A DNA stretch of 64,000 nucleotides, taken from a virus (lineage: Duplodnaviria > Caudoviricetes). The translations under genes and the position numbers were made by a program. Location of the stretch: IMG/VR virus record IMGVR_UViG_3300031867_000003, positions 138,176 through 202,175 of that record; one strand, written 5' to 3'. The notes beneath the pieces were generated by a model that was not told the origin of the DNA, did not search any database, and saw nothing but the letters and a program-made list of their open reading frames with translations. Positions within the stretch are counted from its first letter, which is position 1. The number at the start of each line of letters is the position of its first letter. This document shows, piece by piece, positions 1 through 39,028 of this stretch.

Positions 1-3000
1 ATTATCATAAGTTGGTGTTTCACCGTTTGCGGTTTCAACCAAAAGATTTCGAACTTCATTTTTTAATTGTCCAAATATTTTAGTGGACTTCACACCGAAT
101 TCATCACGAATGGCAGACGCTACCCTAGTTGTTTCTTTTTCTAAGTTTTGTTCATCAATTATAATATCGTCTATAGGCGACTCACTGGGTATACTTTTAT
201 CCCACATATTAGATATTTCATTAAAAGTATATCCAAGTTCTTTTGCTTTAGAATTAAATTGATCTATCGCGTCTGTAAACGGAAGATTTTTTTCTGTAAC
301 CTAAAATTCCAAGTCGTCTACTATAGACTACAAACTTTTTGGAGCCAACTTGGTCATATTTTCAAATTTCTAATGCGGCAAAATATCCTCGCCATTTTGT
401 GAAATCTTCTTCCAGGATCCAGATATTTCATCAAAAGCATATCCAACTGACTCGGCAAATTTTCTAACGGCCTCTTCACCTTTAATAGACTCCTTGGTTA
501 TTTGATCTAAGAAAGCACCATATCCGTCCGGAAGTTCATCCTCCGCCATTCCCATAGCATCTAAAATAGGCTATGTTCCCTCTGTGAATTTCAATATTTC
601 ACCATTTACACGACCATTTCTTTCACGTTCGGCTACAAGTTCTTCCTATCTTTGAGCTATATGAGATTTAAACTCATCCATTGCCGCATCATATTCTTTT
701 TGCCCAGTAGCAACGTCGGCTATTAGCTGATTTACAAAATCTTGATTTGCATCAGAATATCCCTCTATGGAGCGGATATCTTTTCCAAATGTTCGACGTC
801 TGTCGTCTGGGACGGCAACTGGTGAAACTGGAGCCCCATCAGAATCTCCAGCTTTATGATTTTCATCATCTATAGCATCGGCTGCCTCTTCAATCTTTTC
901 TGCCGTTTCTTTCCCAGATTCAGCAACTTTTTCTTTATTTACTTTCGCGAATTCTTCTTTATATGGGATTGCCTCTTTGGCGGACTCGCCCTCGGTTTTT
1001 ATTGCGTTTGCACCTTCGCGGAGAGAAGATAAGTCAATAGAAGATATGGTAGACTGAAATGTTGTGATAGATTTATTTAACTCATCAAAATTACCGGCAA
1101 TGCTTTCCCAATTAATATTTGATAATATAGAATCGTTACCACCTAAACTAAAAGCGTTCTATATAGCCTCTCCCATTTTTTCGGCGTTCTCAGCAACTTT
1201 CTGCATTGTTTCGTTAAGTTGCTCAAGAAATGATGGCGCTTTTGCGTCTTTCGGAAGAAGCCCCTTTGACATTACATTATGCAAATTGCCTATTGCATCT
1301 GTAAATAATTGGATTTGTTGTGTGTATTCTTTTACGGAATCGGATTGCCCAATTTCATCATCAGCTTTTATTCTGGTCTAACTCAACGTTTCAAGTAACT
1401 GGTCTTTTAACTTCTGTTTATCTTCAGGAGACTTTGTAATTTCTGCCTTTTCACGAATTCTTTTACTTATATATTTGAAATCCGTTGCCGGAAAATTTGA
1501 TTCCAACATTTGATCCCAAAATGAGTTTTCCCCTTTTCCGACACTTTCAGCGGTTCTCTATATAGAAGAGATGAATGCCATTATTTGTTTAATCTGGGTC
1601 TTTGAATCTGGTAATAGTTTAATTCTATCTGGATTAAACTATTCAACGAATTCCTAAACATTAGGGAACGCTTCCAAAAACCCGGAACTTCTTGGTGACT
1701 ATGCCATAATATTTGCTAAAAGCTATATATCACTAACATCTCCACCAAGCATACCTTCATCTTTTAATGATAATTTATATTTGTTTACGACGTCTAATAT
1801 ATTTTTATATGCTGCCTAATATCTTTCAGCCTAATTTAACCATTCTGTTTCTATATTTGCCTCAATTGCTGCGTCCGCTACATCGTCTTTAACATGCACA
1901 TTAAACTATTGTTCTTTTCTTGATGTGGCTCTCGAAAAATCCCACATTTCTCTATTAAGTTGCAATAATGATTTCTGATTATTTCTAGCTTTTTGGTTAG
2001 TACCTTCTCCAAATCTACCTATAGCATCAGATACCTAATTAACCACAGATAACAAAGACTAAAACTAACTAATTAACGGTTCTATTCCAGCGTCTGTATC
2101 TATTTGACCAAATGCAGAACTAATATTTGTTATTTCCGTATTTAAATTTTCTAGTGTATTAATCAACTATTGAATATTTTCCGTATTCCAAGACGTAGAA
2201 TCACCACTTGTAGCATGAATTTCTGAAGACATTTTTTCTTTTTTTTTATTAATATTTTCTATATGTTCCTCGGTATCATTTAAAGCCTATTCCGTTTCAT
2301 CTATATTTGGCATTTTTATTTTTGAAAAATCAAAATCATTAATAGCCTATTTAATATCATTAAGTGCATTTTTAAGTTCATTTAATGCGTTTGTTGCGGA
2401 AGTTATTTGTCCCTCATCAATTTTAAATGTTAGTCCATTACCATCTTCTCCGAGAGCATCTAGGGACTACGAGACTTTATCTATAATATTTTGAAATTTC
2501 TAAAACGTTCCGTCATCTTGAAATGCTTTCTTAATTTTGCCAATAGAATCGGCTACGCCGGATTCGGTCTCATCTTCAACTCTATCAGCCATCTGTTTGG
2601 ATGCCTCTAACTCCCTCTCAAGTTCTGCTCGCTGCTATTTTAATGACTTAACCTAGGACTTATTTATTTCATCTGGATTTCTTCCAAGATTCTATAAATT
2701 TTTATTTCTAACATCAACCAGTCTAGCCTATATGTCTTTATAGTTTTCAAACACGCCGGAATCTTTAATTATTCTGTTATCGGGGTTTAGAGCAGTTCTT
2801 AATTTTTTAGTAATATCAAATATTATTTGAGAAAAATCTTTATCGTCAAACCCTATTAACTAACTCAAGTCTCCGCCTTGACCCAAATATTTAAATAAAT
2901 TATCAATATAACCACGCAAATCACTTGCATTTTCCTTAGAAAATAGCCCGTCCAATTGAACATTTGATGTAGCAAGCTATTGTATCTTTCTATATCCTTG

Positions 3001-3444
3001 ACTATTAGAATCAAGTAAATCTCTTTGTATTTTCCTAAAATTATTTTTTGCCTAGTTAGCATTTTTAATTTGTTGATTTATGTTATCAATATCAAAACCG
3101 ATTACTTCCTCTGGTCTAACAGTTGTTTTTCCGGCTATCTGATTAACGGTTCTTCCAACATTTTCTAAATTGCTCTATACTTCTCGAAGAGAATTGCTAA
3201 GTTCGTCCATCCCTGCAACATTTAAACCAAATAAATCTTCGCCGTTCTATCCTTTATACATCTTTGTTACATTTTTAATCGCGGATTCAATGTCCTTAAT
3301 TGAGTCTAATATTTTTGATGTATCTATATCTGCATTAAATTTAATTGGTTTTTTAGCTCTTCTTTCCAATTCGTCTATTTTTTTAGTGCCACTATCATCA
3401 ACTTCAACTTTCAACGGCACAATCACGGTTTCAGTTTCTTTCAT
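1..3444 (-). CDS. N-terminal >1148 aa of a very large tape-measure-like/coiled-coil tail protein (code 15; runs off the left edge)
   Basis: One frame from ATG 3444 to position 1 has no TAA/TGA, only about 30 in-frame TAG (hand count). ORF-track pieces 3247..3444 and 370..555 are in this frame. The sequence looks helical and lies downstream of tail genes. TMP identity is inferred from size and position. Confidence 0.75.
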
Positions 3445-3458
3445 TATTACTCACCCCC

Positions 3459-3896
3459 TTATAAAATTCCATTTATATATTCAACAATTAAATCACTAAT
3501 AGGCGTAGATGTTGGTACATTTGCAAATGACCATCCACCAGCACCATTGGGTCTCGGTCCACCATGAACACCATAATTAACGGCTTTATCAAACGCATGT
3601 CCAGAATCACCTGGGTAAGTTGTACCCCATGGCGCCTCCCAAGAATTTACTCCCACCGTCCCAGAAGTAAAAGTATATACCAAATCACATCCTTCTATCC
3701 CGTGCCATCTTTCTTCCGGCTCTACTTCTGCAAAACTATCAAAACCAAAAACACGATCATAACTACCTGGACCACCAGAACCGTACCATTCTGCCACGGC
3801 ACCGCCAATAGCAGCAGGGATTTCTTCTTTTATTTTGTTTACCTATTCTTCGAGCGCAAGTTTTATTATCTAATCCGGTATAATATTTTTATTCAT
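3459..3896 (-). CDS. hypothetical tail-region protein (code 15, 2 in-frame TAG)
   Basis: ATG 3896 is in frame with ORF 3459..3797 once TAG is read through (MNKNIIPDQIIKLALEEQVNK...). Confidence 0.7.
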
Positions 3897-3946
3897 AAAT
3901 TGCACACCTACCTTAACGGTATATAATTATACCGCTCATGTTATTA

Positions 3947-4462
3947 TCAATTAAACGTGTTATCTAATATTGCATTCAATTTATCTAAATCTATTTTTTC
4001 AAAAATAGGATATAGTGTAGCTCCGATTAATTCCCCAAATCTTTCAACTTGTTTATTTATATAACTATGCGGCTCATATTCATTTGTTATCATGTCATTA
4101 CACTTCATATTAAGAATAATTTTGAACTCATTTAAATCTTTTTCATCAATCATAGACACAATATCATCAAGTGCCATAGATGCATCTAATTTATTATATT
4201 CATTAAGCCCATCCTTAAAATTTATATCAATATCCGTATACATATCTACAATACTTAAAAATGTAAACATATGTTTTGCAGTAGAATTAACTTTAAAATT
4301 CCTATTCTCATCATAATAAGAATTATTAATAATTATCTGAGATCGAACATCTTTTTCCTCAAGAGGGATATAAGATTTTACAATATGCTCTTTAACAAAT
4401 ACAATGCGCTTATCCGTTTCTTTACAATTATCATATAATTCCATAAATTCATCAAATTTCAT
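3947..4462 (-). CDS. hypothetical phage protein
   Basis: ORF with AAGGAG RBS before ATG 4462. Confidence 0.7.
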   Translation of the reverse strand: MKFDEFMELYDNCKETDKRIVFVKEHIVKSYIPLEEKDVRSQIIINNSYYDENRNFKVNSTAKHMFTFLSIVDMYTDIDINFKDGLNEYNKLDASMALDDIVSMIDEKDLNEFKIILNMKCNDMITNEYEPHSYINKQVERFGELIGATLYPIFEKIDLDKLNAILDNTFN

Positions 4463-5576
4463 AATATTTCTCCTTACAATCATCTACAGTAGTTACCGTA
4501 ATTTCTGTGTGCGGATTTTCTTTGTCATAGCCGATTATTTGAAAAAAAGAATTAAGATTTAAGCAGTTGGATTTATCTTCGACAATATTATTATTCTTAT
4601 GTTTTTTACTAAATTCCCAGTTGTCTATCCAACCGTAAATATCCTAAATGGAGTAATACAATTTTTCATCTATAATAATTAGTTTAGAATTTTCAACTGG
4701 ATATTGTTTTGAAAACAATTCTAATCTCAATTTAGATTTTTCATCCATCCATCCTTTAATTTCCAACCATAAATCATAATCGGGCAAATAAAAATCTGGC
4801 TAATAACTCGCAATACCTTTGATATTTTCATTAAAGAAAAAACGCTTATATTCATACTTCCACTAAATATTTAAACAATTTAAAACTCTGGCAATATTAG
4901 CCTCCCAAGAACTTCTAAAATATTGATTTAAGTCCTCACGTTTTCCACCTCTACATCTTGAATACGCATTTTCCGTTGTTCCATAACCTCTAGACTTTGC
5001 TCTTGTCTATACAGCCTTCATAGCTATGTTATGTTTCTCTTCATACGACATATTCGCAAATAATTGCTAATGAGTTTCGGACATCTTCTTTTTTGTTTCT
5101 TTATTATGATGTTTTCCAAGCATACCTCTAGAATGTCCGTTTTCTTTTTGATAATTCTAAGTAGCTAGTGACAATTTTTGTCTTACCTCATTTTGAAATC
5201 TCTCAGATTTGTGATATAAATCAACACCATTTTTCACTTTTTCAATAAACTCATCGGTTGCCTTTCTATTGCCATCTGTTAACCCAGCCTCTCTAGCAAC
5301 ACGTTGTATAGATATAATTGGTCTATTTATTTTTCTTGATAGAGTCTCAAGATTTAAATATTCGCCAGTATGGTCATTATAATAATCAATTATAATCTGT
5401 TTCTCGTTTTCCGTTATTGGTTTGGGAGCAAGCCAGTTTAATCCTAGTTTGGTTTTCATCCCTCTAATACTACCAGATGACCTATTTAAAACTTCACTAA
5501 TCTCCTAAACAGTTTTCCCCTAACTATATAATTTTACTAGTTTATCCTTTTCCTCATCTGTCCACTTTTTATCCAT
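4452..5576 (-). CDS. free-standing homing-endonuclease-like protein (HTH + NUMOD3-like + PD-(D/E)xK nuclease), code 15
   Basis: Continuous frame with TAG=Gln. Motifs: GMLGKHHNKETKKKMSE (NUMOD3-like), YFRSSWEANIARVL, YQPDFYLPDYDLWLEIKGW. Confidence 0.8.
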
Positions 5577-6259: not shown

Positions 6260-7264
6260 TCATTGTATTCCAAACATCTCATTTATTTTATCTTCGGTTT
6301 CATCCTTAAAATAGCCGGAAGTGGTAGTCAAATCAGAATGATGAGCAAATGCCTGGATTTGATCTAACTCAAATACCTTATTATTGCCATTTTCATCTTT
6401 AAGCCGGTCATCCCAACCTTTTTTCAACGCTTGGAGTCGGGAATGGCGACAACTATGAGGAAAAATATTTACTTCCTCTCCGCGAACTTCAGATAATATT
6501 TTACTAATACTAACAATCCTGTCATAAAGAGCTCCACAGTCAACTTCAGAAGCCGTTTCCCCATGTCCCTTAATCCACAAGGAATCTATTCCGTCATCTC
6601 CGCGCCATTCCAAATATTGCCTAATTAATTCCCTGGTGTCATTTAAATAAATAAGAGGAAACTGCTTTCCTCGCTTTCCTCTGACTATATTGGTTTTATT
6701 GCCTTCAAGAAGACCGTCTTTTTTAACTTGATAAACCTCATTGCGTCTCGCTCCAGAATCATACATCAATGACCACAACACAGCATCTTGCAGTCTACCA
6801 CGTTCAAGAAGAATATCTCGTGTTTTTACAAACTCTTCATATGTAAAGAAGAAATCATCATCATTGGTTTTGACCTTTTCATTCGGAACTCCGCGAACCT
6901 TTTTACTATAATTGATTTCATAATCATAATCGTCATCTTCTTCGCAAAAAGTCAACATTGAGTTAATAGAAGAGTGGAGACGATTGCATCTTGCCGGCGA
7001 CATTCCGGAATCGTCAAACCATATATTTAAACGTCTAAAATCTTTCTTTGTCATCTCAAGCACTGATTTATTATCAAAGTCCTCTAATATTTTAATAAAT
7101 ATTAATTTCAAATCATATCTGTAAGCATTAATGGTGTTAGGACTTTTTTTCTGCTGGCGAAGTTCCGTAAGGAAGTCTTCCATAATGGCTTTATTTTCTG
7201 GATTAACCTTGGCCCATTTTTCATCGGTATATATTCTATTATAAACTCCTCGGCTTCTAGCCAT
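6260..7264 (-). CDS. tyrosine recombinase (XerC/D-like; resembles the tail-region YomM-type recombinase of SPbeta-like phages)
   Basis: Catalytic residues SGARR, K, HSCRH, AHH, Y (TSGYF); GGAGG RBS. Confidence 0.85.
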   Translation of the reverse strand: MARSRGVYNRIYTDEKWAKVNPENKAIMEDFLTELRQQKKSPNTINAYRYDLKLIFIKILEDFDNKSVLEMTKKDFRRLNIWFDDSGMSPARCNRLHSSINSMLTFCEEDDDYDYEINYSKKVRGVPNEKVKTNDDDFFFTYEEFVKTRDILLERGRLQDAVLWSLMYDSGARRNEVYQVKKDGLLEGNKTNIVRGKRGKQFPLIYLNDTRELIRQYLEWRGDDGIDSLWIKGHGETASEVDCGALYDRIVSISKILSEVRGEEVNIFPHSCRHSRLQALKKGWDDRLKDENGNNKVFELDQIQAFAHHSDLTTTSGYFKDETEDKINEMFGIQ

Positions 7265-8446
7265 TTAATTATCACCTCCATAATTAGAATACATAATTAC
7301 ATTCCTACCATATTTAATTTCTGTACTGTATTCTAATTCTCCATTTTTTAATACTAAATCCCAGTCAATATTATTTTTCCTAAACTGTTCAATCTTAATT
7401 CTTAGGTCAATACTAGGATTATCAAGAATCTAATCCACATTGTTTTTTGTCAAATCACAAGGAAACAGAATATAATATATTAGTCCTCCACTACTTAATA
7501 AATGTTCTTTATATTTCAATTTCAATCTATACTTTTCTCTAGAATCGCTTTTATCAATAGGTTTATCCATATAATAATAATCTTTATATGCTTCTATTAT
7601 TCCGGGAATTTCAATATAAATCGTTTTCCCATGATATTTAATAACATAATCACAATTCATATTCCCGCTATAGCTATCTATAAAATCAGAATATTTTACA
7701 TCTCTAAAGTAATCTATTCCAAAAACTAATCCGCGAGACCTTAAGTACATAGATAATAAATATTCAAACTAACTTGTAGTTATCTCTCCATCATCAAACG
7801 AATATAATGTCCCTCTCCCTGCTATTCCAATTTCAAATCCATTATTTTTAATATATTCACCAAGTGTCTGATTATAATATTTTCTGCATGAATTTTGTAA
7901 ACATGCTATAGACGGAATGTTATCCAAAGAAGAAATAAATTTATCCGTAATATAAGGAATATTTTTCTACATAGCAACACTAAAAACATACTACATCGCT
8001 TTATTAAAACCTTCTATGTCCAAAGCCTTGGACATCATATCTTCTTGTATGATTTCCAATCCAATTTCTTCCTTCATTTTATTAAGAGAACCCCATACTT
8101 TATTTATATATCTTATTGATGGGACTAATGCCCCTAGATCCCTAAAGTCATCATAATACAAAGGTCTGCCTAATTCTTTTCTGTATTTTTTTATTCTTTC
8201 AATTGCTTCCTCTTTTGGCATTTTCATTGTAAACAATCCAGACCAATTTACAAAATCAGACCAACTTTTTACATTTGAATCCGGGCAATGCTTTACGAAC
8301 CATCTAGCATCAGGCAAATCATAAAATCTAAGTTTAGCATGTGAGATGTGTCTACGATTATTAATACTTTTTAATATAAAATCGTTCACATATAAATCAT
8401 ATTTGTTTAAATCAAATTTACGTGGAGACATTTTTTTCTTTTCCAT
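7265..8446 (-). CDS. free-standing homing-endonuclease-like protein (HE-associated repeat + C-terminal PD-(D/E)xK), code 15
   Basis: ORF pieces 7991..8467 and 7430..7750 join in frame through TAG. Motifs: PSIRYINKVWGSLNKMKEEIGL repeat and CDYVI...IYIEI. Confidence 0.7.
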
Positions 8447-8583
8447 ATTTATCATTCCTTTCAACAATGATTATCCTTTCACAAATAAAAGCGCAGAAGA
8501 GCAGTGAAAGGTTCTGCTCCCACTAGGTTAATTACTCCTAATGTTTCTGCGCAGATAATAAAAAATACCTATGACAGTATTAT

Positions 8584-8833: not shown

Positions 8834-9580
8834 TTAATCAGCCACTTTTCGTTCAATCATAACGATGTAGTGTTTCGTCACCCGCTTGAGCAACGAGTTG
8901 GATGATACCTCATCCTCCATCAGCATGGAGGGCCATGCCTTTGGCTCGCGCTGCGAGCAGATAATACAGCTCCTTGACAATTCATTCCGTTTTTCCAGGA
9001 TGTCATACAGAGCCTTGACTTCATCATCCTCTGTGATTGGGTGCAGAAGAAAGTCGTCCAGGATCACAAGATCAAGGTTAATGATCGCCTTTACCTTCTT
9101 CTGATACTGCTTGAATTCGATTTTTCTGGCCGCGGCAAGCTCACTTACGAGTTCATCGCAATGATAGTAACCTACACGATATTCCCGGCATGCTTCGGCA
9201 CCAAGCGCTCTCGCAAGATAGGTCTTTCCGCTATCAGAAGCCCCGAAGATACAAAGGTTCATGCCTTCCCGTACAAAATCCAACGACGAAAGCGTATGGA
9301 CGATATCCAACGGTTGGTACTGGCGCTCTTTGGAATCAACACACTGGTCAAGACAGCTGTCACTTCCTTTCAGTTTTGCCTTCTTCAGACGCGATGTATA
9401 GCGGTTTGTAATCGTTACGATATATTCGGCGTGAATGATAGTACTGATCAACTCCAGACGTCCTGTATTAACAAAGGCCGGCTGCTTATAAAGTGTTTCA
9501 AGCTCTGCGGCCATATGCGGCAGTTTCAGTTCATCCAGCTCCTCCAGGATTGACTTCAGCTCCTTTGCTCCTGTATTCAT
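8834..9580 (-). CDS. istB: IS21 helper AAA+ ATPase IstB
   Basis: Walker A GASDSGKT, Walker B LVILDD; ATGA overlap with istA. Confidence 0.95.
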   Translation of the reverse strand: MNTGAKELKSILEELDELKLPHMAAELETLYKQPAFVNTGRLELISTIIHAEYIVTITNRYTSRLKKAKLKGSDSCLDQCVDSKERQYQPLDIVHTLSSLDFVREGMNLCIFGASDSGKTYLARALGAEACREYRVGYYHCDELVSELAAARKIEFKQYQKKVKAIINLDLVILDDFLLHPITEDDEVKALYDILEKRNELSRSCIICSQREPKAWPSMLMEDEVSSNSLLKRVTKHYIVMIERKVAD

Positions 9581-11193
9581 TGCTGCGCCTCCTTTCCGGA
9601 CTGATCCGCGAGGGTACGGCTGCGATTCAGCAGTTTTTCCATGTCGGAGTAACTGCTGTCCATGATGTAGGAGCCTTCGTTCCGCTTTTTATTCTTATCG
9701 GTGTTGTAACCTTCAGAGCCAAGTTCTTCGGCTACCGCGCCAATGGTGGTTTTGATATAGGTGTAGGTCGTCCTCTCAGCAGCGAGAGCGCGCCTGCAAC
9801 ATTCCTCCAGGGCAGAGCGGCTGTACTTCTTTGTGAAGCCAAGAACGCCCACACAGAGCCTGTAGGTCTGAACTTCCAGCTTCCGGCTCTTCAGGATCCG
9901 CTTAATTACTTCCGTAGTGTTGCTGCCAACTGTGGATGCTTTCCGGATAAAGTAGGTGCTGTTCCATTCCGAAAAATCCTCGTAGTTTTTCGGCAGACGG
10001 CTGGAGTCTGTTTTCCATTCGCCTCTGTAGGTTGCCCGTGGCCATTCGATAATCAGTTCGCCTTCGAGACTGAAGATCTTGACAACGGAGGCAGTTGCAC
10101 GAATGATGACTTTTTTGTGCAGATACGCTTTGTCTACGCTATAATAAGCATTGTCAAAGCGGATGTGGAAGTCGCTTGACACCTTTGCCGTGGCCCTCTC
10201 CATGTAATGGTACTGCGTGGAGGGGAGCGGCATCAGCTCTTCCTTTTCTTCTGCCCAATAGTAGGAGCGGCAATGCTCCTTCTTCTTAAACGGAGCGTCA
10301 TTCAGCTCATCCAGCTTCTCCCAGAGGTCTTCATTGAACTGCTCAAGCGAGAAATATCTGCGTTCTTCCAGTTCATGGAAGAACCCTTTCTCGAGAATGC
10401 CAACCGCGTTTTCCACAGAAGATTTGAAACGGGGTTTCCGGACCTTGGCGGGAAGAATCACGGTGTGGTTGTGCTCCGCCCATTCTGCGTAGTCCTGATT
10501 CAGTTCCGGCTGTATCCAGTCCTTGTTTGCGATCACGGCCTGTTTGCAGTTATCGCAAACGACGATAGCGGGAACGCCGCCAAAAGCCTTCAACGCGTTG
10601 TTATTGACCTCGATCCACTGCATCTCCTTTGTGGATTCCATACCCTCAGCGTAGATGTACTGGGAATACGGAAGGATAGCAACAAATACGACGATCGGTG
10701 TGATCTCGCCGGTAAGACGGTTGATCAGATCAAATGTCTTGCCTGCAAAGTCGACTTCCATCGTCTGGGCGATCACGGCTGTAAAGTGTGCTGTTTCGTA
10801 GTTTTCCTCGCACCACTTGCCGAAGAGCTCACAGAACTGCCGGTACTGGTATGGTTTCTTCTCCTCGGCATTGCAGCGCTTGACATACCGGTCCCAGCAC
10901 ACCTGAAGCGTCATGTTCTTTCTTTCGTTCATGAGCTTCAGAACCTTCGGGTAGTCGGGGTACTCGTAGCTTTCATCTCGACCGCCTTCGCCCGGCACTT
11001 TGCCATACACCTTCATGGCAATTCCGGCGTTTGTGATCCCGGGCGGGAGTGGGAAGTCCAGATCTTCGCACTTTTCGAATGCGTGGATAAACTTCTGTAT
11101 CCCGGATTTGCTCATACCGGTTTGCCGGCTGATTTCTCTCACCGACAACTTGATCACGAAGTATTTGTTGAGAATGTCTCTGTAGTCTAGCAT
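9577..11193 (-). CDS. istA: IS21 DDE transposase IstA
   Basis: N-terminal HTH; EVDFAG, VCDNCK, KPRFKSSVEN motifs. Confidence 0.95.
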   Translation of the reverse strand: MLDYRDILNKYFVIKLSVREISRQTGMSKSGIQKFIHAFEKCEDLDFPLPPGITNAGIAMKVYGKVPGEGGRDESYEYPDYPKVLKLMNERKNMTLQVCWDRYVKRCNAEEKKPYQYRQFCELFGKWCEENYETAHFTAVIAQTMEVDFAGKTFDLINRLTGEITPIVVFVAILPYSQYIYAEGMESTKEMQWIEVNNNALKAFGGVPAIVVCDNCKQAVIANKDWIQPELNQDYAEWAEHNHTVILPAKVRKPRFKSSVENAVGILEKGFFHELEERRYFSLEQFNEDLWEKLDELNDAPFKKKEHCRSYYWAEEKEELMPLPSTQYHYMERATAKVSSDFHIRFDNAYYSVDKAYLHKKVIIRATASVVKIFSLEGELIIEWPRATYRGEWKTDSSRLPKNYEDFSEWNSTYFIRKASTVGSNTTEVIKRILKSRKLEVQTYRLCVGVLGFTKKYSRSALEECCRRALAAERTTYTYIKTTIGAVAEELGSEGYNTDKNKKRNEGSYIMDSSYSDMEKLLNRSRTLADQSGKEAQQ

Positions 11194-11528
11194 AGGCTAC
11201 CTCCTAATAAGAATCTCCATCGCTATAGGTGGGCGTTCTCATTATAGGAGATAACGGTATTCAAAACTCAATAAACCCGGCCACTCGCTCCGCTCCGTGG
11301 CCACTTACGGCCGCATAAGCGGCCACTGGGATCCGCCGTATGCAATATAATTCATAAGCACTATATCTGCGATATCTTTATCATATGTTTTAGTAGCCAA
11401 TTCAATATTAGTTACAATTTCCCATTTATGGTCATGTAATGAACGTAGATATACAGTTTTTCCTTCTGCATCAATGGAGGCTATTACATATTTATTTATA
11501 GTTTTTTCCAATTGCTTTCTCATAATAT

Positions 11529-12662: not shown

Positions 12663-12672
12663 AGTATTCTCC

Positions 12673-27353: not shown

Positions 27354-28934
27354 TTACGCAATTGTACTGCCCGTATTTCTACTTCTTTCAGCACTACCGC
27401 TTAAATCATCATCGTCCGACCTAGGTCTTCCGACCGTGTTACTGGAAGTATTATAACTTGATTTCAAAGGTTTCATCATATCTTTGATACCAATAGCATT
27501 CTCAAACCTAATCTTGTTAATTGCCTTATACGGTGTTCCTTCAATAACAGATAAATAGTCCAATGCCGGACCACCTAATGTTGCGGAATCTTTATATCTT
27601 TGGATATAATCATCCTCATTAAACCAGGTTATTCTCAATATCTCAAAGATATACCCCTTAGATATATTTTCCGCAATATAAAAATTCAGCCAAGATTCCA
27701 ACCTATTTACCCAGACCCACACATTTGATTGATCCGCAAGCTGAGCAAATTTAATAGCTAGATTAGAAGTAGAATTTCCACCGGACACAACTGTTTGTGT
27801 TAATCCGCTGTTGGAAAACAGATTATTTATAGATTTCGCTAATGCATCTGTATCCGACGCATGTGACGTATCATTAAACGTAATTTTATCAATGTCGAAC
27901 GGAGCAGTAATAACACCGACCAAATCCGGCACTGACTGTTCCTCAAGCTGTCGAAAATAATTAACCATCTCCATTGAGATAGCAAAATCATCAACATCCC
28001 CGCTGTTACCATTATCCACTAACGGTATCTTATTCACAATCAAAGCATAATTCTCAAGTTCTGTTTTAGATTGAAGAATCTGCTGCAAATCAAGTAAATC
28101 TAATAAATCCGTAAACAGCGGAAGAAAATATGGCAATGGGAACGAGAACTCATCTTCCGGACCAATCAATAAAACACAACATTTTTCAGGCGGTAATCTA
28201 AACCATTGATAATCACGTCCGCCATCCTTATATGAACGGTATCCGTTAATAAATACCTCATCCCAAGTTGCATAACTTCCTTGCCCATCAACTCCGAGAA
28301 CAAACTCACTGTTGTTAGCAGCGTCAAAAAATGCAGCATTAAAATATACGACCCATTCTCCATACTCATTTTTTCCGACTATTCTGCAATATTGAACGTC
28401 TAGCGGCATTAAAAAAGTTCTTCCTTGTTTATTCTCATAAACGTACCCAGCATAAAATCCGTCACGGATTGCAAGATATAGTGCGGTATACATATCTTTC
28501 TTCAGACTAAACTTGTCAAAAGTCTCGAGTACTTTTTGATAACCCTTGAGCGCCTTATCCACATCTATCTCTTCGGCTAAATCATTTGCTTGAGTAATTG
28601 TATAATAGAACAACGGCATCGCCGCCATATACATAATCATCTTTTGATACAACATTGAATTCCTAACTAAAAATCTCGAAATTTCTCGAAGAGTATCTTG
28701 ATTGTTAGCCGGAGACTAAACATATGTTTTTACGAGATCTTTAGTATATTGCGTGAAAGTTCTGTTTACAGACCTAGTGGCATTACGCTGAAGAATTTCT
28801 TCCATCTTGGCAAATGTCATCGTTTGCGCACGATCACGCTTATAAGAAAAATCCTCCACATCCGCGGGGATTGTAGTTATTTTAGTTTCATTATTTTTGG
28901 GGCCGCCGTCAGCGGTTTTCTTTCTTGTTGCCAT
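27354..28934 (-). CDS. portal protein (YonE-like), code 15
   Basis: ORFs 28716..28934 and 27354..28655 join via one TAG; LREISRFL motif, C-terminal GRP; follows the terminase. Confidence 0.8.
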
Positions 28935-28949: not shown

Positions 28950-30707
28950 TTATTTAAATCTGGTTACTTTTCTAGGTTGGCGGAATGTAAATTGAGAGAA
29001 TAGAGAGTTTATATCTTGGTTTTTCGGTCTCAACTTTAACTCCAACTAACACGCACACCAATAATTATAAGCAATAGAAGAGTAACGGTCTTTACGCATA
29101 CCTGACTATTCTTTAACTTTAATGTTACCATTCTTAACCTCATGATCGAGTTTAATTAATTCATACTCTGCCATAGTTGTTTGCAAATACGGCATCTTTA
29201 TATATGCCTAATCAGTCGGAGAGAGTTTGGAATAGGGTTTATATAATTTTACCAATTCCTCTTCACATTCTTGTTCTGAAATAAGAAAGCTAATTCTACC
29301 ATTCTATATTCCATTTCTAAGCAATACACATATTTCGTTATTGAAAGTTGCACCAGCTTTTACTGACCAAACAACTTTATTTGCATCTTTAACTTTACAT
29401 CTAATAGCCATGTCTTCATCATTAATGCACGTTAACGCTTTATATGTTTTTCCAGTCGAAGAATCATATTGATCCTTACAAATAAAATCGAAAATTCCAA
29501 TTCCTAGTCCTCCTGTATCAACCACTAAGTCAGTGCATTTGTATTCATAGAAATAACGCATAACAATAATCCCAAGTTCGTCAGTTGTTAACCCTTCGAA
29601 AGTTTCTCCGTAAACTACATTTGAATGATAACTTATGTCATCCTACTGAATCGCACTATTGATATATAATGCAGCTGCGTCATTCTTCTTTTTCTTTGTT
29701 GATCCCATAAGAGCTACGTCAACAGAAAGAATTCGTTTTTCTGTTGCAGAAACATCGGGGACTTTGATTTTATCATTATAGAATTTTAGTGGTAATAAGG
29801 CGTTTTTGATTTTTCTCTATTTATTTATCTCTTCCCACTTAAAGAGATTATCACCATCATCTCCGACCCACATACATTCCATTTCCATAGTAAAAGCAAG
29901 TTCATTAAAGTCAGCTTCTGATTTTTCATCCATTACTTGATCTTTGGACAAAAGACCTTCTTTGATGCTTAATTGATATGGTAGTCCACAGCAAAAATAT
30001 CTCTTAGTGTCATCGAAAAAATTAACCACATATGCTTGTAACTTTTTCCATGCCCATGAACTTTTAAAATAAGCACTACTCATATATATTTCTTTATTTC
30101 TTTCTTGCAGATGAGAATACTCTGGCTTATTTAAATATCCCGGCTATCTAGGACTCGTTAAAAATTTACGAATAACCAAATTCAAAATAGTCTCATCAAC
30201 CATACGAAACTCATCAACTACAATGATATTCGCTCTAGCACCACGAGCATTATCTGTACTAGTTCTTGTTGTAATCCAAGAACCATTTTTAAACATAATA
30301 ATTGCATCATTCTATCCTATGTTACATTTTTCTATTTCAGTACATAAGATAGGAGACATTTTCATTAGTTCATCCTGTATTTTTAACAATACTCCATTTG
30401 CCTATTTAAGAGTACCGGAACAAACAACAATCTTACTACCAGGATATAATATACATCTTACAACACAAAAGAGCGCAGTAAGCCAACTTTTTGACATACC
30501 CCTTGCGGCAATAAACATAAAGTAATTATAATGCATCATCGCCCATATTAATATCTTCTAAAAAAGCTTAAGGTGTATGCCTAATACTTCTTCAACAAAC
30601 CGCTCTGGATTTGCACGATAATAAGCTGCTCTAAAAGCAACTGTCTACATTATTTTCTGTTCTTTGTCCTGAGCAATTTCACGAACAGATTTCTTTTTTT
30701 CAGCCAT
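28950..30707 (-). CDS. terminase large subunit (YonF-like), code 15
   Basis: AARGMSKS (Walker A), [13 protein letters not shown] (Walker B), [22 protein letters not shown]; TAGs fall at expected Gln sites (LKLFQKILI, TLKQA, PRQPGY). Confidence 0.9.
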
Positions 30708-31762
30708 CACAATTCCTCTGTGGTTCCGAATATCTGATCAAATAGAGTTTCGGAATCTGTATCTTCATCGTATTGTGGTTTATCAACTGTGTATTTTTTG
30801 ATAAACTTTTCATACGTATGAGAAAATGCATTTTTTAGTCCCATCATACGAGACATATGACCTTTAAAAAATACATCAAGATAAAGTCCTATTTTATTAA
30901 CTGAACGAAATTCTTCGTCAGGCTCAGGAATAGGTTTTTCATTTTCCCATTTTTGTATCAACTGCCCAAATGTTTTAGCCTCTGTAAGTGCATTGGAATT
31001 ATTTTGATTAGGTTTTAATGACATACTCCCCATTAAATCTTGAAGCGTTTTATCTAATTCCTTTGTATCTTTACCAGCCTTTTGGGCCTTATCTATATCT
31101 AGTTCTTTAAAGCATATACGTTTAAATAATATTTCTTGTGCCTTATTTTCACAAGCATAACGCTTTATCCAATCTTGATATTCTGTCTCTAAAAAAATTA
31201 AATCAGAATTTGTATACCCATCACCAAATCGTTTTTTGGCTTGTTTCAGAGTTCTAGAATTTTCGTTTATCTCTTCCTCATCTTTATCGAGATAATCAGG
31301 GGGAAATTCTGAGTCTCTCCAGCTTTTATTTTTATACTGAAACAGACTTTTTACCATTACGATATACTGACTCCATGCGGTTCCTCTATGTTTATCTTGT
31401 ATATCCTCAGAGGTAGACGAAACAGCAGATTGATATAAAGAATCAATATAGGGCAAATCCATCATTCTAAGTACATCCATTGTTTTATCCCGATTATCAG
31501 TATATTGATTCGTTTTCTTATCATAATCACAAGCCATTTTAATTAAACATTTTTTGCAAATTGGAAACAGCCCACTTGAGTAACTTTTATCCGAATAAAA
31601 AGCATCGGTATTGTGGAACTCATTACATTTTGGACATAGAAATACATCCCCATTTATTATGCGATTATAATCCTTAGCTAATTTATTATATTCTTGTCTA
31701 ACCTAAGCGACCCCAGTTTTTCTAATTTCCTCCTCTGTAAGTGCTTGTTTTAATCTAATCAT
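30707..31762 (-). CDS. putative terminase small subunit (YonG-like, CxxC zinc finger), code 15
   Basis: CPKC...CKKC; TFGQLIQKWENEKPIPEPD; immediately upstream of TerL. Confidence 0.65.
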
Positions 31763-32892
31763 AAAATACCATCCTTTTTATCATAACTCCACTTATATCC
31801 TTTATAACTATCTATAATACCCTTGCAACAATCACTTATGTTGCTCATATTAAATCCATCAACTACAACATCGGATAATCTATTATATGTTTTAATTAGT
31901 ACCCCATCCAAATCCAGTTGTAATATTTTTCCACGATATCTTTTTCTAATAGTATTACATAACTCATAACATTTTTCAGGAGTAAAATAATCTAAATCTT
32001 CCTCATAACAAAATACAAATCCCTTTACTGTATTTCTTTTCCTCTGACAACATTCCCTAACCATCCTAATATGAAAACCACTCCGTGTAACATCATGCAT
32101 AGAATCATACATTTTTACAATAGCCCCATTTTCATCTAATTGAACAACCCTTTTAGCCTTCATCCTATTATGTACATTATTTATATATTCTAGATATTCA
32201 TCTGTTAATATATAATAATCATCCTCATAAATATAAATATAACCATGAGACACCAAAGTCCCATTAGTCCTTGATCTTATTGGATTATATCCTAATTCTA
32301 ATCTCGCTATTTTACACGTTTCCCATTTTTTAAGAATATTCCCAGATAAATCACACTGTAGTACAGGTGCAACTTTTCTTTCATCAAAATACCACTGCAA
32401 GCTGTCAAAGCCATGATAGTCTTCTAAGAAACAAAATATATATTTGTCTACCCTCTTTATTTTTTTATGCACACATAAATATATTGCGCTAGGATCTATA
32501 TTTAGTTCTCTGGCGGCCTGCGGGACATTGTTCCATTCTTTAATTAGGTTTCCAGACAAGTCAAATTGTAATACTACATGTATACACGAAGTACCTTGCC
32601 CTCCAAGAGTATTATTGTACCCATTACAATCAACAAATCCGTGATATGTCCTTAATCTATCTATCCAATATATTTCTTTTTCGTCTAATTCATTTTCATT
32701 ACATAATTCAATAATGGAAAAATCAAATTTATTTTCACCATGCTTATTCCACGAACTCTACAGATGACTATTCCCATGTTGATTCTTATTTAACAGCCTT
32801 TTATGGTCTTTCCATCTTCTGTTAATATCAACAGCTTGACCAACATACATTTTCCCATTATCCAAATTAGTAATTTTATAAATTCCAGTCAT
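31759..32892 (-). CDS. GIY-YIG homing endonuclease with NUMOD1-like repeats, code 15
   Basis: MTGIYKITN...MYVGQA...RRW...H; HLQSSWNKHG has TAG at the conserved Gln; repeated VLQ.DL.G..IK modules. Confidence 0.9.
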
Positions 32893-32988
32893 AACATTCC
32901 TCCTTTTCATAACAAAAAAGAGAGGGAGTGATTTCCCTCTCTAAGCAGTTATTCCGTCAGAATGTAGCCAGTATCATCACTGGTAAAT

Positions 32989-33057
32989 AGAATATGTACG
33001 ACTCGAACGTCTCCCCTTCGTCCCAGGCGAAGTGTGCTACCATTACACCACATACTC
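32989..33057 (-). tRNA. tRNA-Pro(TGG)-like, atypical
   Basis: GAGTATG TG GTGT AATGGTA GCAC A CTTCG CCTGGGA CGAAG ... TTCGAGT ... CATATTC; weak T stem, C33. Confidence 0.6.
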
Positions 33058-33138
33058 TAAAATAATAAATTTCACCACGGGAATCGAACCCGAAGCAGAA
33101 GAGTAGTAGTTACTCTCCCGCGTACCAACCTAAACAAA

Positions 33139-34152: not shown

Positions 34153-34238
34153 TTAATAGTAGCGTATAACCATTACTTAGCTACTACCGTGGTGCGCATC
34201 CACAAGTTTTAGGAATAACGGCTTTGTCAGCCAAAAAA

Positions 34239-34827
34239 TTACCAACCCAAAAAGTCAGTATTGATAATATCTCCAATCATACCTCTATCAAGGAATTTAG
34301 TCCCCTTATATCTAAATTGATGGCGACCGGTTTCATCCTAAAAGCAGAAGCAAAATCCGTGATTATCCTCGTCTATACACAGAGAATGATGTGGACCATG
34401 CTCATCACTCTGAATAAGCCTATTACCTTCCTCATCAAACTCCGGCTCACCGATAATCATTGGGAATACATCGCCCTCAACGTGAGGATAATCCTCAATA
34501 TAATCATAAGCGTACTCGGCAGCAATAAAATAATAGTCCGCCTCACAGTATACGAGCATCTTATCTCCCACATATTTCTCGGGGTCTGTAAACGCCGGCT
34601 GTACCAAAATAGTACGTTCGTCAATGCTAATAATATACGGCCCATTATCTTCTTCGGTAAACTCGGAACAATCGCTAAGTTCGCAGCCGAAGCGGATTCC
34701 AATATTGATGAAATCCCTAGCATCGTCGTAATCGGCGATAATCGGCGATAATTGCAAATCTCAGTTCATCGTCCCAATAATCATTAAAGAAACAATCAAC
34801 GTCTCTAATAATTTCAACATTTCTCAT
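34239..34827 (-). pseudogene. acidic hypothetical gene frameshifted by a 10-bp tandem duplication
   Basis: ATCGGCGATA x2 at 34731-34750; deleting one copy joins ATG 34827 to ORF 34338..34757, which reads through TAG to TAA 34239. Confidence 0.65.
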
Positions 34828-34872
34828 AATAATCCATCCTTTTAATCATAGCGGTCAAGTTAGGCAAATTCA

Positions 34873-36090
34873 TCATTGCTTAAACTTAACATCATATATA
34901 CAATCAAGGCCTTCATTCTCATCGATAACAAGAACAGTCTGCTCGGGGTAGTTATTTAGTCGCTTACTTATTGCAAACGAATCAGTACCGGACAAACAGC
35001 CGGTTTGCACAACTTTAACGTTGCTCCTGGTCATATAAGCATTGGTGTGTCGATGACCGAGGAGAATTAAATCCCACTTAATTCCTGTCAACTGATTAAG
35101 GTTATCAATGACATTATCCGGGGTATCTTTGTCGCCATGGACAAATGCCACATTCATACCGCGAACGGCAAACATCGCAATACCTTGTTCAATGTCATTA
35201 GTATGGAAAGTAACATTCTTAAAATTCTGAAGTTTAGCACTCAAGAACGGAATCACCAAATTATCAAAATTCTCATGATCGAGACTTTCTTTAATGTTTG
35301 GAGTAATTCGTGAGTGATTCCCGGGCGCCACATATACATTTACTTCATTAAATCGGTAACTAAGTGCCGCAATAAAATCTGCAACATAATCCATCACCAT
35401 AAGAAACTGGTCAATCAAATCTTGATTATTCTCGATACGGAGAGTGGAATGAATAATTCCCGATAGCATCTCAGATAGTAGTACGTAGGCGTTCTGACAA
35501 CCATGAATAAGTTGTATCTCAAATATACGGTCAAGGTAATGGTTAAGTCGTCTTTTTAACACATCCTCGTTGTACTCATTCCAAAAATTCTTAATCTCGA
35601 GACCGGCATGGACATCGGATAACGGAATAATCATATCTTTATCAGAAGTAATAGTGCCATGAAAACGAGCATTGTCCTCGTACTCCAGAGCGCGAGAATC
35701 CGCAGCATCAGTAATAGAACGAACAAACTGCTCCATATAGGATTCCTTCCGCGCTTGTTCGCGGAGTAATCGCCTATACTCATTACGCTCATCGCGCACC
35801 TTGACACGTTCTTTCTCCAGTTCTCGGCGAAGTTCGCGCAGCTCCTCGGCGTCCGCCGATTGAGTAGCGTCACCGAAATCCTCGCGGAATTTACGAACCA
35901 GTGCATACTTCTTCCTAAAAACTGAATCCGTAACATACTCGTCCGGGTTATCATTGAGTTCTTTATTAATACACTCGGCCAACTCGGGCCAAGTCATATC
36001 AATAAGTCCTTCATATTTTTTATCCCCCAGTCGGGTAATATACTGGAGTTCTGTTTCTCCGGGTAAACGTTTGGTAATTTGTTCAATCAT
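34873..36090 (-). CDS. calcineurin-like metallophosphoesterase (YonJ-like)
   Basis: SDVH, GNH, HGD, GHRH motifs after a coiled coil. Confidence 0.8.
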   Translation of the reverse strand: MIEQITKRLPGETELQYITRLGDKKYEGLIDMTWPELAECINKELNDNPDEYVTDSVFRKKYALVRKFREDFGDATQSADAEELRELRRELEKERVKVRDERNEYRRLLREQARKESYMEQFVRSITDAADSRALEYEDNARFHGTITSDKDMIIPLSDVHAGLEIKNFWNEYNEDVLKRRLNHYLDRIFEIQLIHGCQNAYVLLSEMLSGIIHSTLRIENNQDLIDQFLMVMDYVADFIAALSYRFNEVNVYVAPGNHSRITPNIKESLDHENFDNLVIPFLSAKLQNFKNVTFHTNDIEQGIAMFAVRGMNVAFVHGDKDTPDNVIDNLNQLTGIKWDLILLGHRHTNAYMTRSNVKVVQTGCLSGTDSFAISKRLNNYPEQTVLVIDENEGLDCIYDVKFKQ

Positions 36091-36107
36091 TAATTACCTC
36101 CCGATAA

Positions 36108-36329
36108 TCATTCCTCATCTTCAAAGGAATCCGTCAAATCCATCTCGTCCTTAGTAGAAATACTCACATCAATAGCCTCGCCACGGAACGGCTTAAAACA
36201 ATCTAGAATAGAAATTGTCTTAGATTCAGCGTCACCATTAATATACTCAAGAGTGGTACCATCTGCGGAAAGAGTACCTTTAATATTGAACTTAGAATTG
36301 ACAAGTTTCTTGTATTTATAATTCTGCAT
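36108..36329 (-). CDS. small YonK-like protein
   Basis: Size, position and IKGTL...F.GEAIDVSI pattern. Confidence 0.5.
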   Translation of the reverse strand: MQNYKYKKLVNSKFNIKGTLSADGTTLEYINGDAESKTISILDCFKPFRGEAIDVSISTKDEMDLTDSFEDEE

Positions 36330-36356
36330 AATTTATTTCTCCTTTTAATCCATCAA

Positions 36357-36659
36357 TTATTTCTTCACAGATACGCCGGAAGTTTTCGCAGCGTAATCCT
36401 TCGCACTTCTAATAGAAGCAAGCAGTATATCCATTGCCTGAGTCGGCTTAAACCCGGCCTTGGTCAACGCATCATATTTCTTCTTATAATTAGTGGCTTC
36501 AACCGCATAGTATTCATCGTTGCCGACCAAGTCTTTATACATACCAAAGAGTTCTCCGGCAGCGGAATAAATAATCGGTTTTGCCGCTTTGATAACCCCG
36601 GTAACCACGGAGTTAATTTCATCCGGGTTGGTCATCAATGCTTGTAATAATTCTTCCAT
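36357..36659 (-). CDS. hypothetical protein
   Basis: ORF with AAGGAG RBS. Confidence 0.65.
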   Translation of the reverse strand: MEELLQALMTNPDEINSVVTGVIKAAKPIIYSAAGELFGMYKDLVGNDEYYAVEATNYKKKYDALTKAGFKPTQAMDILLASIRSAKDYAAKTSGVSVKK

Positions 36660-36731
36660 AATCCTTGTATCTCCTTAAAAAAATACTGCGGAAATCCCCA
36701 CCCCTGAAATCTCCGCAGTTATATCAATATA

Positions 36732-37346
36732 TTAAGCAAGTACCTCATCAATTGTAATATCTTCACCAATTATCTTGTCAACGACGCCAAGTTCTTTAGC
36801 ACGATCTGCGTACATATAAAGCTCAACGTCATAATGTTCATCATAAAATTGCTCGTCCATGTTAGTACGGTTAAGAACAAATTGTTTTGCTCGGTCTTCT
36901 GCGGAGGAGAAAAAGCTCATTACTTCCTTCGCTTTTTTTGTACTGTTTGCAATACTTATGGAACCATCGTGCTGCAAAAAGATACTATTAGAGAAGGCCA
37001 CGCGCTCATGACAAGCCAAGAATATATGATAGCAAGCAGACGCAACCAAAGATAACCCAATGCCGATAACCGGCGTCTTACTCTGGAGAATAACATCCGC
37101 AACATTCTGTGAGACGAACGTATCCCCACCGACACTACTAAAGAATATTTTGATCGGTTTACGCTTATCTACCGGGATATCAACGTCATCCATATTCCAT
37201 TTGAGAATATACATCACAACGTTTTCTACCATGTTATCATCAACTTCTTCATTAAAAACGAGAATTCTTTTATTTAAGAACTCTCGATATAATTCATCAT
37301 ATGTGTCCGACTGAGAGCCGGAAATCGGCAGTATTAAATCATTCAT
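36732..37346 (-). CDS. clpP: ClpP-like protease
   Basis: RIL...KPIKIFFSSVGG...VASA (Ser)...LQH (His)...AKELGVVDKI. Confidence 0.8.
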   Translation of the reverse strand: MNDLILPISGSQSDTYDELYREFLNKRILVFNEEVDDNMVENVVMYILKWNMDDVDIPVDKRKPIKIFFSSVGGDTFVSQNVADVILQSKTPVIGIGLSLVASACYHIFLACHERVAFSNSIFLQHDGSISIANSTKKAKEVMSFFSSAEDRAKQFVLNRTNMDEQFYDEHYDVELYMYADRAKELGVVDKIIGEDITIDEVLA

Positions 37347-37370
37347 ATATAATCCCCCGTTAGTTATTAA

Positions 37371-37670
37371 TCATTCCTCACTCATTGCCTTGAGACGAGC
37401 CTCGACCTCACGGCGAACACGCTCTTCAAAATCGGCCTCACGGTCCTGGCGACGACGCTTCATAATTTCATCAAGGTCTTTTTCCAGTTCGGGGGTTTTC
37501 TCAAAAACAAAAACTGACCGTTTGTGGTCAGCATCATTTCTGTCAGCCTTAAGATGGGTAATTCTATGCCCCTTATCAAGAAGTTCATTAGCTATTGCAG
37601 CTTTTCTTATTATTTTACCTTCAACTGTTTCATCATTCGTATTTTGATTAATTGTATTAATTGTTAACAT
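37371..37670 (-). CDS. DUF5659-like small protein
   Basis: IANELLDKGHRITHLKADR...SVFVFEKT. Confidence 0.55.
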   Translation of the reverse strand: MLTINTINQNTNDETVEGKIIRKAAIANELLDKGHRITHLKADRNDADHKRSVFVFEKTPELEKDLDEIMKRRRQDREADFEERVRREVEARLKAMSEE

Positions 37671-39028
37671 TATTCCTTATTCTCCTTTTTAATTTCTTCA
37701 TATGAAAAAAATGTGTTATGGTGTGTTTTTTGACGCCCGAGACAAACGTCACTCACAGCTTTATGATTATACTTACCGTTTGTCTTTCTTTCCACATCAA
37801 TACAAGAGTCATAAACACCGATTAAATTATAATCCAAATCATAAGCATAAACTTTACGTCTATTTTTTACGGACGGATTATTATTATAAACATTTCGCTT
37901 TCTTTCAGCTATAAAATCATAATCAATTTCCCCATTTTCATATGCATCTTGCAAAAAAATTTTTACCCTTCTCTTACTTCTGTGAAGAGCTTTTGCAATT
38001 TCAACATAATCAGATTCTGGATTATTACTTTTGTAATCCATTATTTCCTTCAATATCTTATCCTTTTCCGTTATATAAATAGACTGCGCAAATTTACGAT
38101 ATTTATCTTTATCCGTTTTTAATAATCCAAGCTTATCCGCTTTAAGGATATAGTCACGAAATGTATGAAATCCAATATTTAACAATTTAGCCCCATCTTC
38201 TTGAGATATACCGCCATCAAATAGTTTAATGGCTTCTAAAAAATTAGATTTATTCGCAGCTATTTCGCATTCAGTCCAGTTAACATCAGAATCGCTAAAG
38301 TTTAATATCTATGGGAGAGAAGACTCTAATACAGATTTTTTAATATATTCTAAGTCGGAAAACGCACAGTCTAACTCTACATAATTTTCAATGCCATTTA
38401 AAATGGCTTTCTCTCTTTTTTCTTTATCGTTTTCTTTTTGCTCTTCCAAAGACCTCATATAATTAACTTGTTCAAAATGTTGTCTCCCGTGATTTTCTAT
38501 TATTAAATTATAATCTGGAATATATTGATCATAACGTTTTGTTGGGCTCCATTCAAAAATATGTTCTGGTCTAAATTCGACATTTAATTGTGTTAACATA
38601 TTCCTAATAAATTTATTAGGATAACTTATCCCATCGGAACATATAGGGCATGAAAAACCATAAGTATGTAATTCCGAAACGACAATTTCTTTCACATGTC
38701 CGCAATTAGGGCATTTTACTTTGATTCTTTTATTTGACTTAGGTCTTACGTTGTCTCCATCCTTAGGGTTTAATAAATATTTGGTTAAATCCGGTCTTAA
38801 AGTATTTAAATCATTGCAACCCGGAAGTACCTTCCTGCCAGAACAAACTGGACATCCATTTTTTAATCTGAGAAGTTGATCCGGTTTTCTTAAAAATTCA
38901 AAACCATCATTTAAACATCTTACTTTAATAGGCACCTTTGAATTTACATACTCCGATAACACCTAAATATTTGGATGTTTCTTTTTTAATCGTTCCACAA
39001 ATTCTTCATGAGTTAATAATTTTCCCAT
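37670..39028 (-). CDS. free-standing zinc-ribbon endonuclease with NUMOD1-like C-terminus (code 15, 2 TAG)
   Basis: ORFs 38309..38962 and 37670..38185 join via TAG; GCPVC, CPNCGH, YD...IIENHGRQH. Confidence 0.8.

Follow-up and report, generated by a model that had tools for sequence, protein, structure and literature searches.

The structural genes of a phage related to SPbeta raise the question of whether TAG is a stop codon in them, which amino acid it would otherwise stand for, and what would decode it. The DNA concerned is a 64,000-nucleotide stretch, termed the window below, which comprises bases 138,176–202,175 of a single 202,175-bp phage contig (IMG/VR record IMGVR_UViG_3300031867_000003; CheckV completeness 100%) of gut or rumen origin. 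Our conclusion is that this phage very probably uses two codes according to gene class, TAG being glutamine in the late block by way of an amber suppressor tRNA whose gene is split by an intron.

Extent of the recoded block and meaning of TAG

Stop-to-stop frames of at least 150 codons were mapped on the minus strand, with one stop codon at a time made sense. In window positions 1–39028, frame coverage rose from 0.49 under the standard code to 0.83 with TAG as a sense codon, versus 0.54 with TGA and 0.60 with TAA. Under translation table 11 the minus strand of this part is a series of short frames, which table 15 fuses into long genes. From 39029 to 64000, TAG gave the smallest coverage gain of the three stop codons, and over the whole genome its effect was restricted to approximately 80–177 kb. 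The genome bins at 120–140 kb went from a coverage of 0.00 to 0.90–0.94 at a threshold of 250 codons. The effect is real and lies far above chance level.

The recoded minus-strand block spans genome positions 83,309–177,203 (~94 kb). Among its 29,642 codons are 307 in-frame TAGs, corresponding to 26% of the glutamine-type codons there, versus not a single in-frame TAA or TGA in its 67 long genes. Gene ends are TAA or TGA throughout, and TAG is nearly absent as a stop genome-wide. A sequence-only reading of the window had proposed that about 20 minus-strand genes become continuous and are led by a ribosome-binding site only if TAG is sense. In 1–39028, 24 genes with at least one in-frame TAG were counted, the recoded genes all end in TAA or TGA as had been claimed, and a crude test found a Shine-Dalgarno-like 4-mer upstream of the first start codon in 29 of 41 genes. 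The same reading had set the recoded arm at 1–39028. Recoding was found there, but the block runs ~55 kb further left, and the arm itself is interrupted by TAG-free stretches at 8837–12704, 6263–7264, and 34224–37670 (a YonJ-like exonuclease and small genes). The rightmost TAG-bearing gene lies at 37670–39028; no in-frame TAG occurs in the YonO-like, PhoH/PIN, and YonN-like genes or in anything to the right of them. Just left of the block, a few plus-strand frames (genome 73630–76395 and 80949–81512) need two TAGs each to stay open, so the recoding may extend beyond the minus-strand operon.

Could the TAGs simply be stops in decaying pseudogenes, assembly errors, or occasional read-through sites? 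Nothing specific speaks for this beyond the fragmentation of the genes under code 11, and we regard it as extremely improbable. The excess of TAG over the other two stop codons is hard to match with decay, the frames are homologous to those of relatives across the TAGs, TAG positions are common to independently assembled relatives, and a cognate tRNA(CUA) is present. Annotation with the standard code shreds about half of the genome, including the terminase, portal, tape-measure, and tail genes; this genome must be annotated with table 15.

The meaning of TAG was assessed by translating all code-15 frames, with TAG rendered as X, and running tblastn alignments against 48 and later 53 related loci. 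The 48 loci were SPbeta, Lysinibacillus phage LC76P1, Mammaliicoccus phage phi6255, a human faecal contig, and 44 IMG/VR contigs. At the TAG columns of the window, relatives had CAA in 21.6% and CAG in 13.4% of cases (35% together), followed by TAG (7.6%) and GAA (5.9%). A likelihood test, for which each residue's substitution profile was taken from these same alignments, gave -1849 for glutamine versus -2348 for the runner-up histidine, a difference of ~500 log units; serine, tyrosine, and leucine all scored below threonine (-2583). Nine TAG columns were at least 80% conserved in at least five standard-code homologues, namely five with glutamine, two with glutamate, one with serine, one with lysine, and none with tyrosine or leucine. 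Genuine glutamine columns under the same test served as a control and returned glutamine in 24 of 36. In the large terminase (TerL), TAG columns 51, 103, and 555 are glutamine in 32/32, 33/33, and 29/32 standard-code homologues, respectively, and in recoded relatives TAG and CAA/CAG interchange at the same columns. The signal was weaker with three distant standard-code references alone, where glutamine was the commonest residue (11 of 46) and tied with asparagine in likelihood.

These alignments support glutamine as the meaning of TAG in the late genes, as the sequence-only reading had held from family motifs. Each of its motifs was recovered with TAG at the asterisk: LKLF*KILI, TLK*A, and PR*PGY in TerL, HL*SSWNK in a Pfam GIY-YIG protein, and also YTLT*L and KFYA*.

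The suppressor tRNA and its intron

ARAGORN and the Rfam tRNA model RF00005, applied to the whole genome, found tRNAs for Met, Gly, Gln(UUG), and Pro only and no CUA tRNA. An amber suppressor, not remarked on in the sequence-only reading, is nevertheless present inside the late block, and it is invisible to both tools because of an intron:

26827–26510, minus strand: amber suppressor tRNA (CUA), split, just downstream of the portal gene
26795–26827, minus strand: 5' exon of the suppressor tRNA, ending ...GUAGU-CUCU; intronless copy at L023:5674-5762
26564–26794, minus strand: 231-nt group I intron, splitting the anticodon as CU/A (between U35 and A36)
26510–26563, minus strand: 3' exon, starting AAA-ACUAC, with long variable arm, T arm, G73, and no encoded CCA

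From the joined exons ARAGORN calls an 87-nt tRNA(cta); its loop is CUCUAAA, its variable arm is long, A1.C72 is mismatched, and position 73 is G. In the recoded relative L023, a near-identical tRNA occupies the same syntenic position downstream of the portal gene. There the insert is missing and CUCU/AAA is uninterrupted, which fixes the splice junction to the base.

Against the Rfam group I model (RF00028) the 231-nt insert scored 29.7 bits (E 2.9e-5), below the gathering score of 50. It has a U before the 5' splice site, a terminal G, and a conserved structured core; its GGAG pairs with the exon CUCU, forming a U.G pair at the splice site. Five aligned introns yielded 50 predicted pairs, of which 20 showed compensatory changes. 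The tRNA(CUA) bodies of L005, the closest relative, and of L071 are unrelated to that of the suppressor, and both are split at the same CUCU/AAA site by an intron of the same family. This family also occupies the classical tRNA-Leu(UAA) site in this genome (11589–11902) and in other phages. Judged by its core, its splice-site bases, and the covariation, the insert is a group I intron, predicted to be self-splicing.

Group I introns occur in bacterial tRNA anticodon loops, the classic case being tRNA-Leu(UAA). As in those introns, a U precedes the splice site, the intron ends in G, and a guide pairs with the exon end. The suppressor differs in being an amber tRNA and in a site one base later (after U35), with the guide GGAG matching CUCU instead of GAG matching CUU. 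The tRNA-Leu(UAA) of this phage is a second intron-containing tRNA (genome 11553–11952; L049:553-952), which ARAGORN calls as Phe(GAA). By group I criteria, a U in front of the splice site and a G as the last intron base, it is instead a tRNA-Leu(UAA) with a 314-nt intron after U34, and the 3' half of this intron is 76% identical to the suppressor intron. In an incomplete literature search, no report of a group I intron within a suppressor tRNA was retrieved.

Several searches delimited the suppressor further. An IMG/VR search for its unusual T arm returned L023 as the sole true homologue, the other hits being ordinary phage tRNAs or tRNA-like elements that have the T loop in common with it; the tRNA itself is hence without covariation support. 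Two such elements (L062 ~460–550 and L065 ~8200–8290), located in tRNA arrays of unrelated phages, share the T arm TTGGG-TGCAAGT-CCCAA and have an acceptor stem similar to that of the suppressor, with no normal anticodon arm. The L023 suppressor had no blastn match among GenBank phages. L072, found through the intron motif, proved to be a tRNA-Arg(UCU) and not a suppressor. Three tRNA-model hits at genome 12087–12168, 12891–12981, and 14050–14141 (31–36 bits) carry insertions of 10–25 nt in the anticodon or D region and are not accepted by ARAGORN as normal tRNAs; they were rejected as CUA tRNAs, there being no CUA in their loops. A scan for sigma-70 promoters around the suppressor tRNA gave no more hits than shuffled sequence, and only a terminator-like hairpin at 26910–26885, upstream of the tRNA, stood out.

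Gene content of the block and its distribution among relatives

The genes and elements in the right part of the recoded block, and the polymerase gene flanking it, are the following:

1–3444, minus strand: 3' part of the tape-measure gene (whole gene genome 134129–141619, 2497 aa, 57 TAG, 32 of them in the window)
4452–5576, minus strand: endonuclease or resolvase-like gene, probably mobile, 8 in-frame TAG
6263–7264, minus strand: YomM-like integrase homologue, TAG-free, in the middle of the recoded structural block
7265–8467, minus strand: gene with an HNH-repeat domain, 4 TAG
8837–12704, minus strand: TAG-free island of 43–45% G+C versus ~33% in the surrounding region
9580–11220: transposase in the G+C-rich island (phrog_1157; Mu-transposase C-terminal domain)
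11532–12704: class-V aminotransferase/cysteine-desulfurase-like gene in the G+C-rich island
13705–21741, minus strand: head and tail structural genes, 1–7 TAG each
13705–14496, minus strand: virion structural protein
17025–17900, minus strand: LAGLIDADG-like endonuclease
20635–21741, minus strand: capsid-region protein
22430–23998, minus strand: HNH/DUF4379 homing-endonuclease-like gene, a single TAG directly before the stop
24262–25986, minus strand: structural gene in the YonD position, 3 TAG
27354–28934, minus strand: portal protein, 1 TAG (phrog_2739, E 2.8e-84)
28950–30710, minus strand: large terminase TerL (YonF-like), 11 TAG
30707–31762, minus strand: YonG-like gene, 1 TAG
31759–32910, minus strand: GIY-YIG homing endonuclease, 1 TAG (in the HL*SSWNK motif)
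32987–33059, minus strand: tRNA-Pro(UGG)
34873–36090, minus strand: YonJ-like exonuclease, TAG-free
37670–39028, minus strand: homing-endonuclease-like gene (DUF4379, NUMOD1), 2 TAG
41203–43773, minus strand: putative YonO-like single-chain RNA polymerase, 856 aa, TAG-free, just outside the recoded block

The affiliation proposed in the sequence-only reading, an SPbeta-like phage with a YonO polymerase, is supported by homology. Across 94% of its length, TerL shares 44% identity with YonF, and the homologues of YonF, YonG, YonJ, YonN, YonO, YomM, and YomI lie in the same order on the same strand (yonO-yonN-yonJ-yonG-yonF-yonE...yomM...yomI). The tape-measure gene matched yomI (tblastn, E 2e-20), and the 856-aa protein matched YonO with 24% identity over 322 aa (E 3e-11), at a similar length and the same position. 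In the closest relative (G001, 205 kb) the YonO homologue was found in two pieces (C1:112777-115673), the first match containing three TGA and one TAA; this may reflect an intron, the insertion of an element, or breakage of the gene.

At least six genes of the homing-endonuclease type, with GIY-YIG, HNH/DUF4379, LAGLIDADG-like, and endonuclease-VII-like members, are scattered in the late block (4452–5576, 7265–8467, 17025–17900, 22430–23998, 31759–32910, and 37670–39028). Most of them contain TAG, so these mobile elements follow the late code of the phage. The integrase-like gene is free of TAG and would be translatable without the suppressor. The island at 8837–12704 appears to have entered the recoded tail region recently from a source that uses the standard code; the frame of its transposase has a single TAG, in a possible N-terminal extension.

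In-frame TAG was found in 12 of the relatives fetched from IMG/VR or GenBank, and 39 had none in 600–5000 aligned codons. In a TerL tree, recoded relatives form one subclade nested among standard-code relatives, which includes two short standard-looking contigs; L004 and the phage phAss-1 are recoded separately from it. With its interchange of TAG and CAA/CAG, this nested subclade is a good natural series for the onset of a code change. Genes for tRNA(CUA) were found among the fetched loci in the recoded L005, L007, L021, L023, L026, and L042, and in L040 as the only apparently standard-code locus. The 87-nt tRNA(CUA) of L040 (4061–4147) has G1:C72, A73, and a tyrosine-like look, and its locus is free of in-frame TAG over 1866 aligned codons. 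Here a suppressor may be present in a phage without recoding, or in one where recoding has yet to arise. Standard-code relatives also carry, ~1.1 kb upstream of TerL, ARAGORN tRNAs of abnormal anticodon loop size with 4-base 'atta' or 2-base anticodons (L024:8828-8901, L025:2213-2286, L027:8829-8902, and L029:820-894).

Code use by gene class and comparison with known phages

How might such a tRNA be charged, and what would follow for the phage? Gene searches of the complete genome revealed no release factor, no enzyme of the glutaminyl- or glutamyl-tRNA synthetase (GlnRS/GluRS) type, and no PylS. Lacking a synthetase of its own, the phage has to rely on a host enzyme for charging, and GlnRS is the most likely candidate in view of U35, G73, the unpaired 1:72 (A1.C72), and G2:C71. 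The bacterial GlnRS identity set comprises G73, a weak 1:72, G2:C71, G3:C70, G10, U35, G36, A37, and U38 (PMC9976931). The suppressor has G73, the unpaired A1.C72, G2:C71, G10, U35, and A37; it has C3:G70 in place of G3:C70, A36 in place of G36, as does every amber suppressor, and A38 in place of U38. An amber tRNA-Ser was converted to glutamine acceptance by changes at 1:72 and 3:70 (PMC9976931). In relatives, at least three other suppressor bodies were found, among them a class I tRNA-Gln-like one (L042) and a 91–92-nt type shared with phAss-1, all with a weak or mismatched 1:72 pair and G73. The tRNA-Gln(UUG) of the phage itself has A1:U72 and G73.

A link to Lachnospiraceae as hosts is weakly indicated. 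Metagenome-assembled genomes (MAGs) of this family that hold related contigs carry glnS (714–720 bits). The host prediction comes from three MAG-binned contigs only, phage-sized or short, and one of the three is in an Absconditabacterales bin, which was taken as mis-binning.

We propose the following mechanism. The early genes and the YonO-like polymerase would be read under the standard code of the host, which yields correct products given that they lack in-frame TAG. The late block, with the minus-strand structural, packaging, and homing-endonuclease genes, uses TAG as glutamine, and its decoding would depend on the phage CUA tRNA encoded within the block. With its gene interrupted, this tRNA would exist only after transcription and self-splicing. 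A host enzyme, most likely GlnRS, would charge it in competition with the host release factor RF1. Late proteins would be truncated until the suppressor accumulates, which may restrict virion and lysis functions to the late phase. Of this scheme, the sequence data show the recoding with its extent and glutamine meaning, the tRNA, the intron, and the splice junction; charging by GlnRS, competition with RF1, and the regulatory role are proposals. The structural and lysis genes of SPbeta form a single operon that starts upstream of yonK and is transcribed by YonO (Forrest et al., 2017, PMC5467207). The recoded block starts at the place homologous to the start of that late operon, which suggests that the YonO regulon and the recoded gene set coincide.

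A number of points weigh against this mechanism. The late timing of the recoded genes derives only from homology with SPbeta, and the location of the tRNA within the very block that needs it weakens a simple order of tRNA first and late genes after. The suppressor body has a single close homologue (L023). Its D loop lacks GG and its T loop is UGCAAGU, so that its function is an assumption, and the host was assigned by MAG binning only. On paper, moreover, the long variable arm, G73, C72, and G2:C71 fit a serine tRNA no less well than a glutamine tRNA, with G3:C70 and G36 absent.

This last point leads to an alternative in which TAG is sense but is read as serine (or tyrosine or leucine). The only suppressor found here is class II-shaped, the features just named are SerRS determinants (serine set in PMC9976931), and SerRS ignores the anticodon. 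However, the suppressor lacks C11:G24 and its 1:72 is unpaired, and relatives with other tRNA bodies, including the class I one of L042, swap TAG with CAA/CAG. The coding evidence points the same way, both in the likelihoods and in the conserved columns, including the three invariant glutamines of TerL. We consider this alternative improbable: tRNA shape leaves the charging ambiguous, and the coding evidence decides for glutamine.

It is also extremely unlikely that TAG is pyrrolysine or that the host itself uses code 15, with no switch driven by the phage. ARAGORN labels any CUA tRNA as 'Pyl'; the phage has no PylS gene, the long variable arm gives the tRNA a shape unlike that of tRNA-Pyl, and the TAG columns are glutamine. 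In a code-15 host, the complete avoidance of in-frame TAG by the early genes would be needless, and we know of no bacterium with TAG as glutamine.

Within the favored scheme of a glutamine-inserting late code, a more specific version is tentative, and we would not rely on it. In this version the switch would depend on a doubly unusual suppressor, which combines a class II-shaped body that has glutamine identity through the unpaired 1:72 and G73 with an anticodon spliced from a mobile group I intron that jumped from tRNA-Leu(UAA). Splicing would then be one more requirement for late translation. The split gene illustrates, in a concrete case, why suppressors are missed in many recoded phages. 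If the situation is general, intron-split or otherwise non-canonical suppressors may explain part of the ~60% of TAG-recoded phage genomes in which no suppressor was found.

Among known systems, SPbeta is the nearest in gene order, and both phages have the late block downstream of the polymerase gene. SPbeta differs in its standard code (0 in-frame TAG in 2205 aligned codons), its 134 kb genome, and its Bacillus host. Through this lineage, recoding is connected to a phage family for which SPbeta offers a laboratory model and YonO a dedicated late-gene polymerase, so the identity of the polymerase regulon with the recoded regulon becomes testable.

Code 15 in gut phages is established, as had been noted from the sequence alone. 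TAG is glutamine in phage late genes, with suppressor tRNAs and a patchy occurrence within clades (Borges et al., 10.1101/2021.08.26.457843; Peters et al., PMC9523058). In crAss-like and Lak phages and in the Garnet, Amethyst, Jade, Sapphire, and Agate clades, TAG is likewise sense in structural and lysis (late) genes. These clades and the phage studied here share standard-compatible early genes, a phage suppressor tRNA, and a patchy code, and the ~200 kb genome falls in the range given for Jade and Sapphire (10.1101/2021.08.26.457843). In contrast to them, this phage has an SPbeta-type TerL and gene order, a YonO-like RNA polymerase, and no RF2. The group I intron in its suppressor tRNA is a state not described by Borges et al. 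(10.1101/2021.08.26.457843).

A further counterpart is phAss-1 of the proposed Phassvirus (OQ749652; Babkin et al., 2023, PMC10607447), a siphovirus-type phage with TAG as glutamine in its TerL, portal, tape-measure, and tail genes. It likewise has no aminoacyl-tRNA synthetase and a predicted host in Clostridia, and its authors compared it with Spbetavirus (PMC10607447). The phAss-1 suppressor, 91 nt in size and also long in its variable arm, shares 88% identity with the type present in L007, L021, and L005. The two phages differ in that no YonO homologue was found in phAss-1, its genome has 136 kb, and its suppressors lack an intron; its TerL is 26% identical to that of the present phage, versus 44% for YonF of SPbeta. 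The reading of TAG as glutamine is thus a known phage trick in a new lineage. Of most interest are the suppressor tRNA, with its intron and odd shape, and the connection to a late polymerase of the YonO type, and the split suppressor is more original than code 15 itself.

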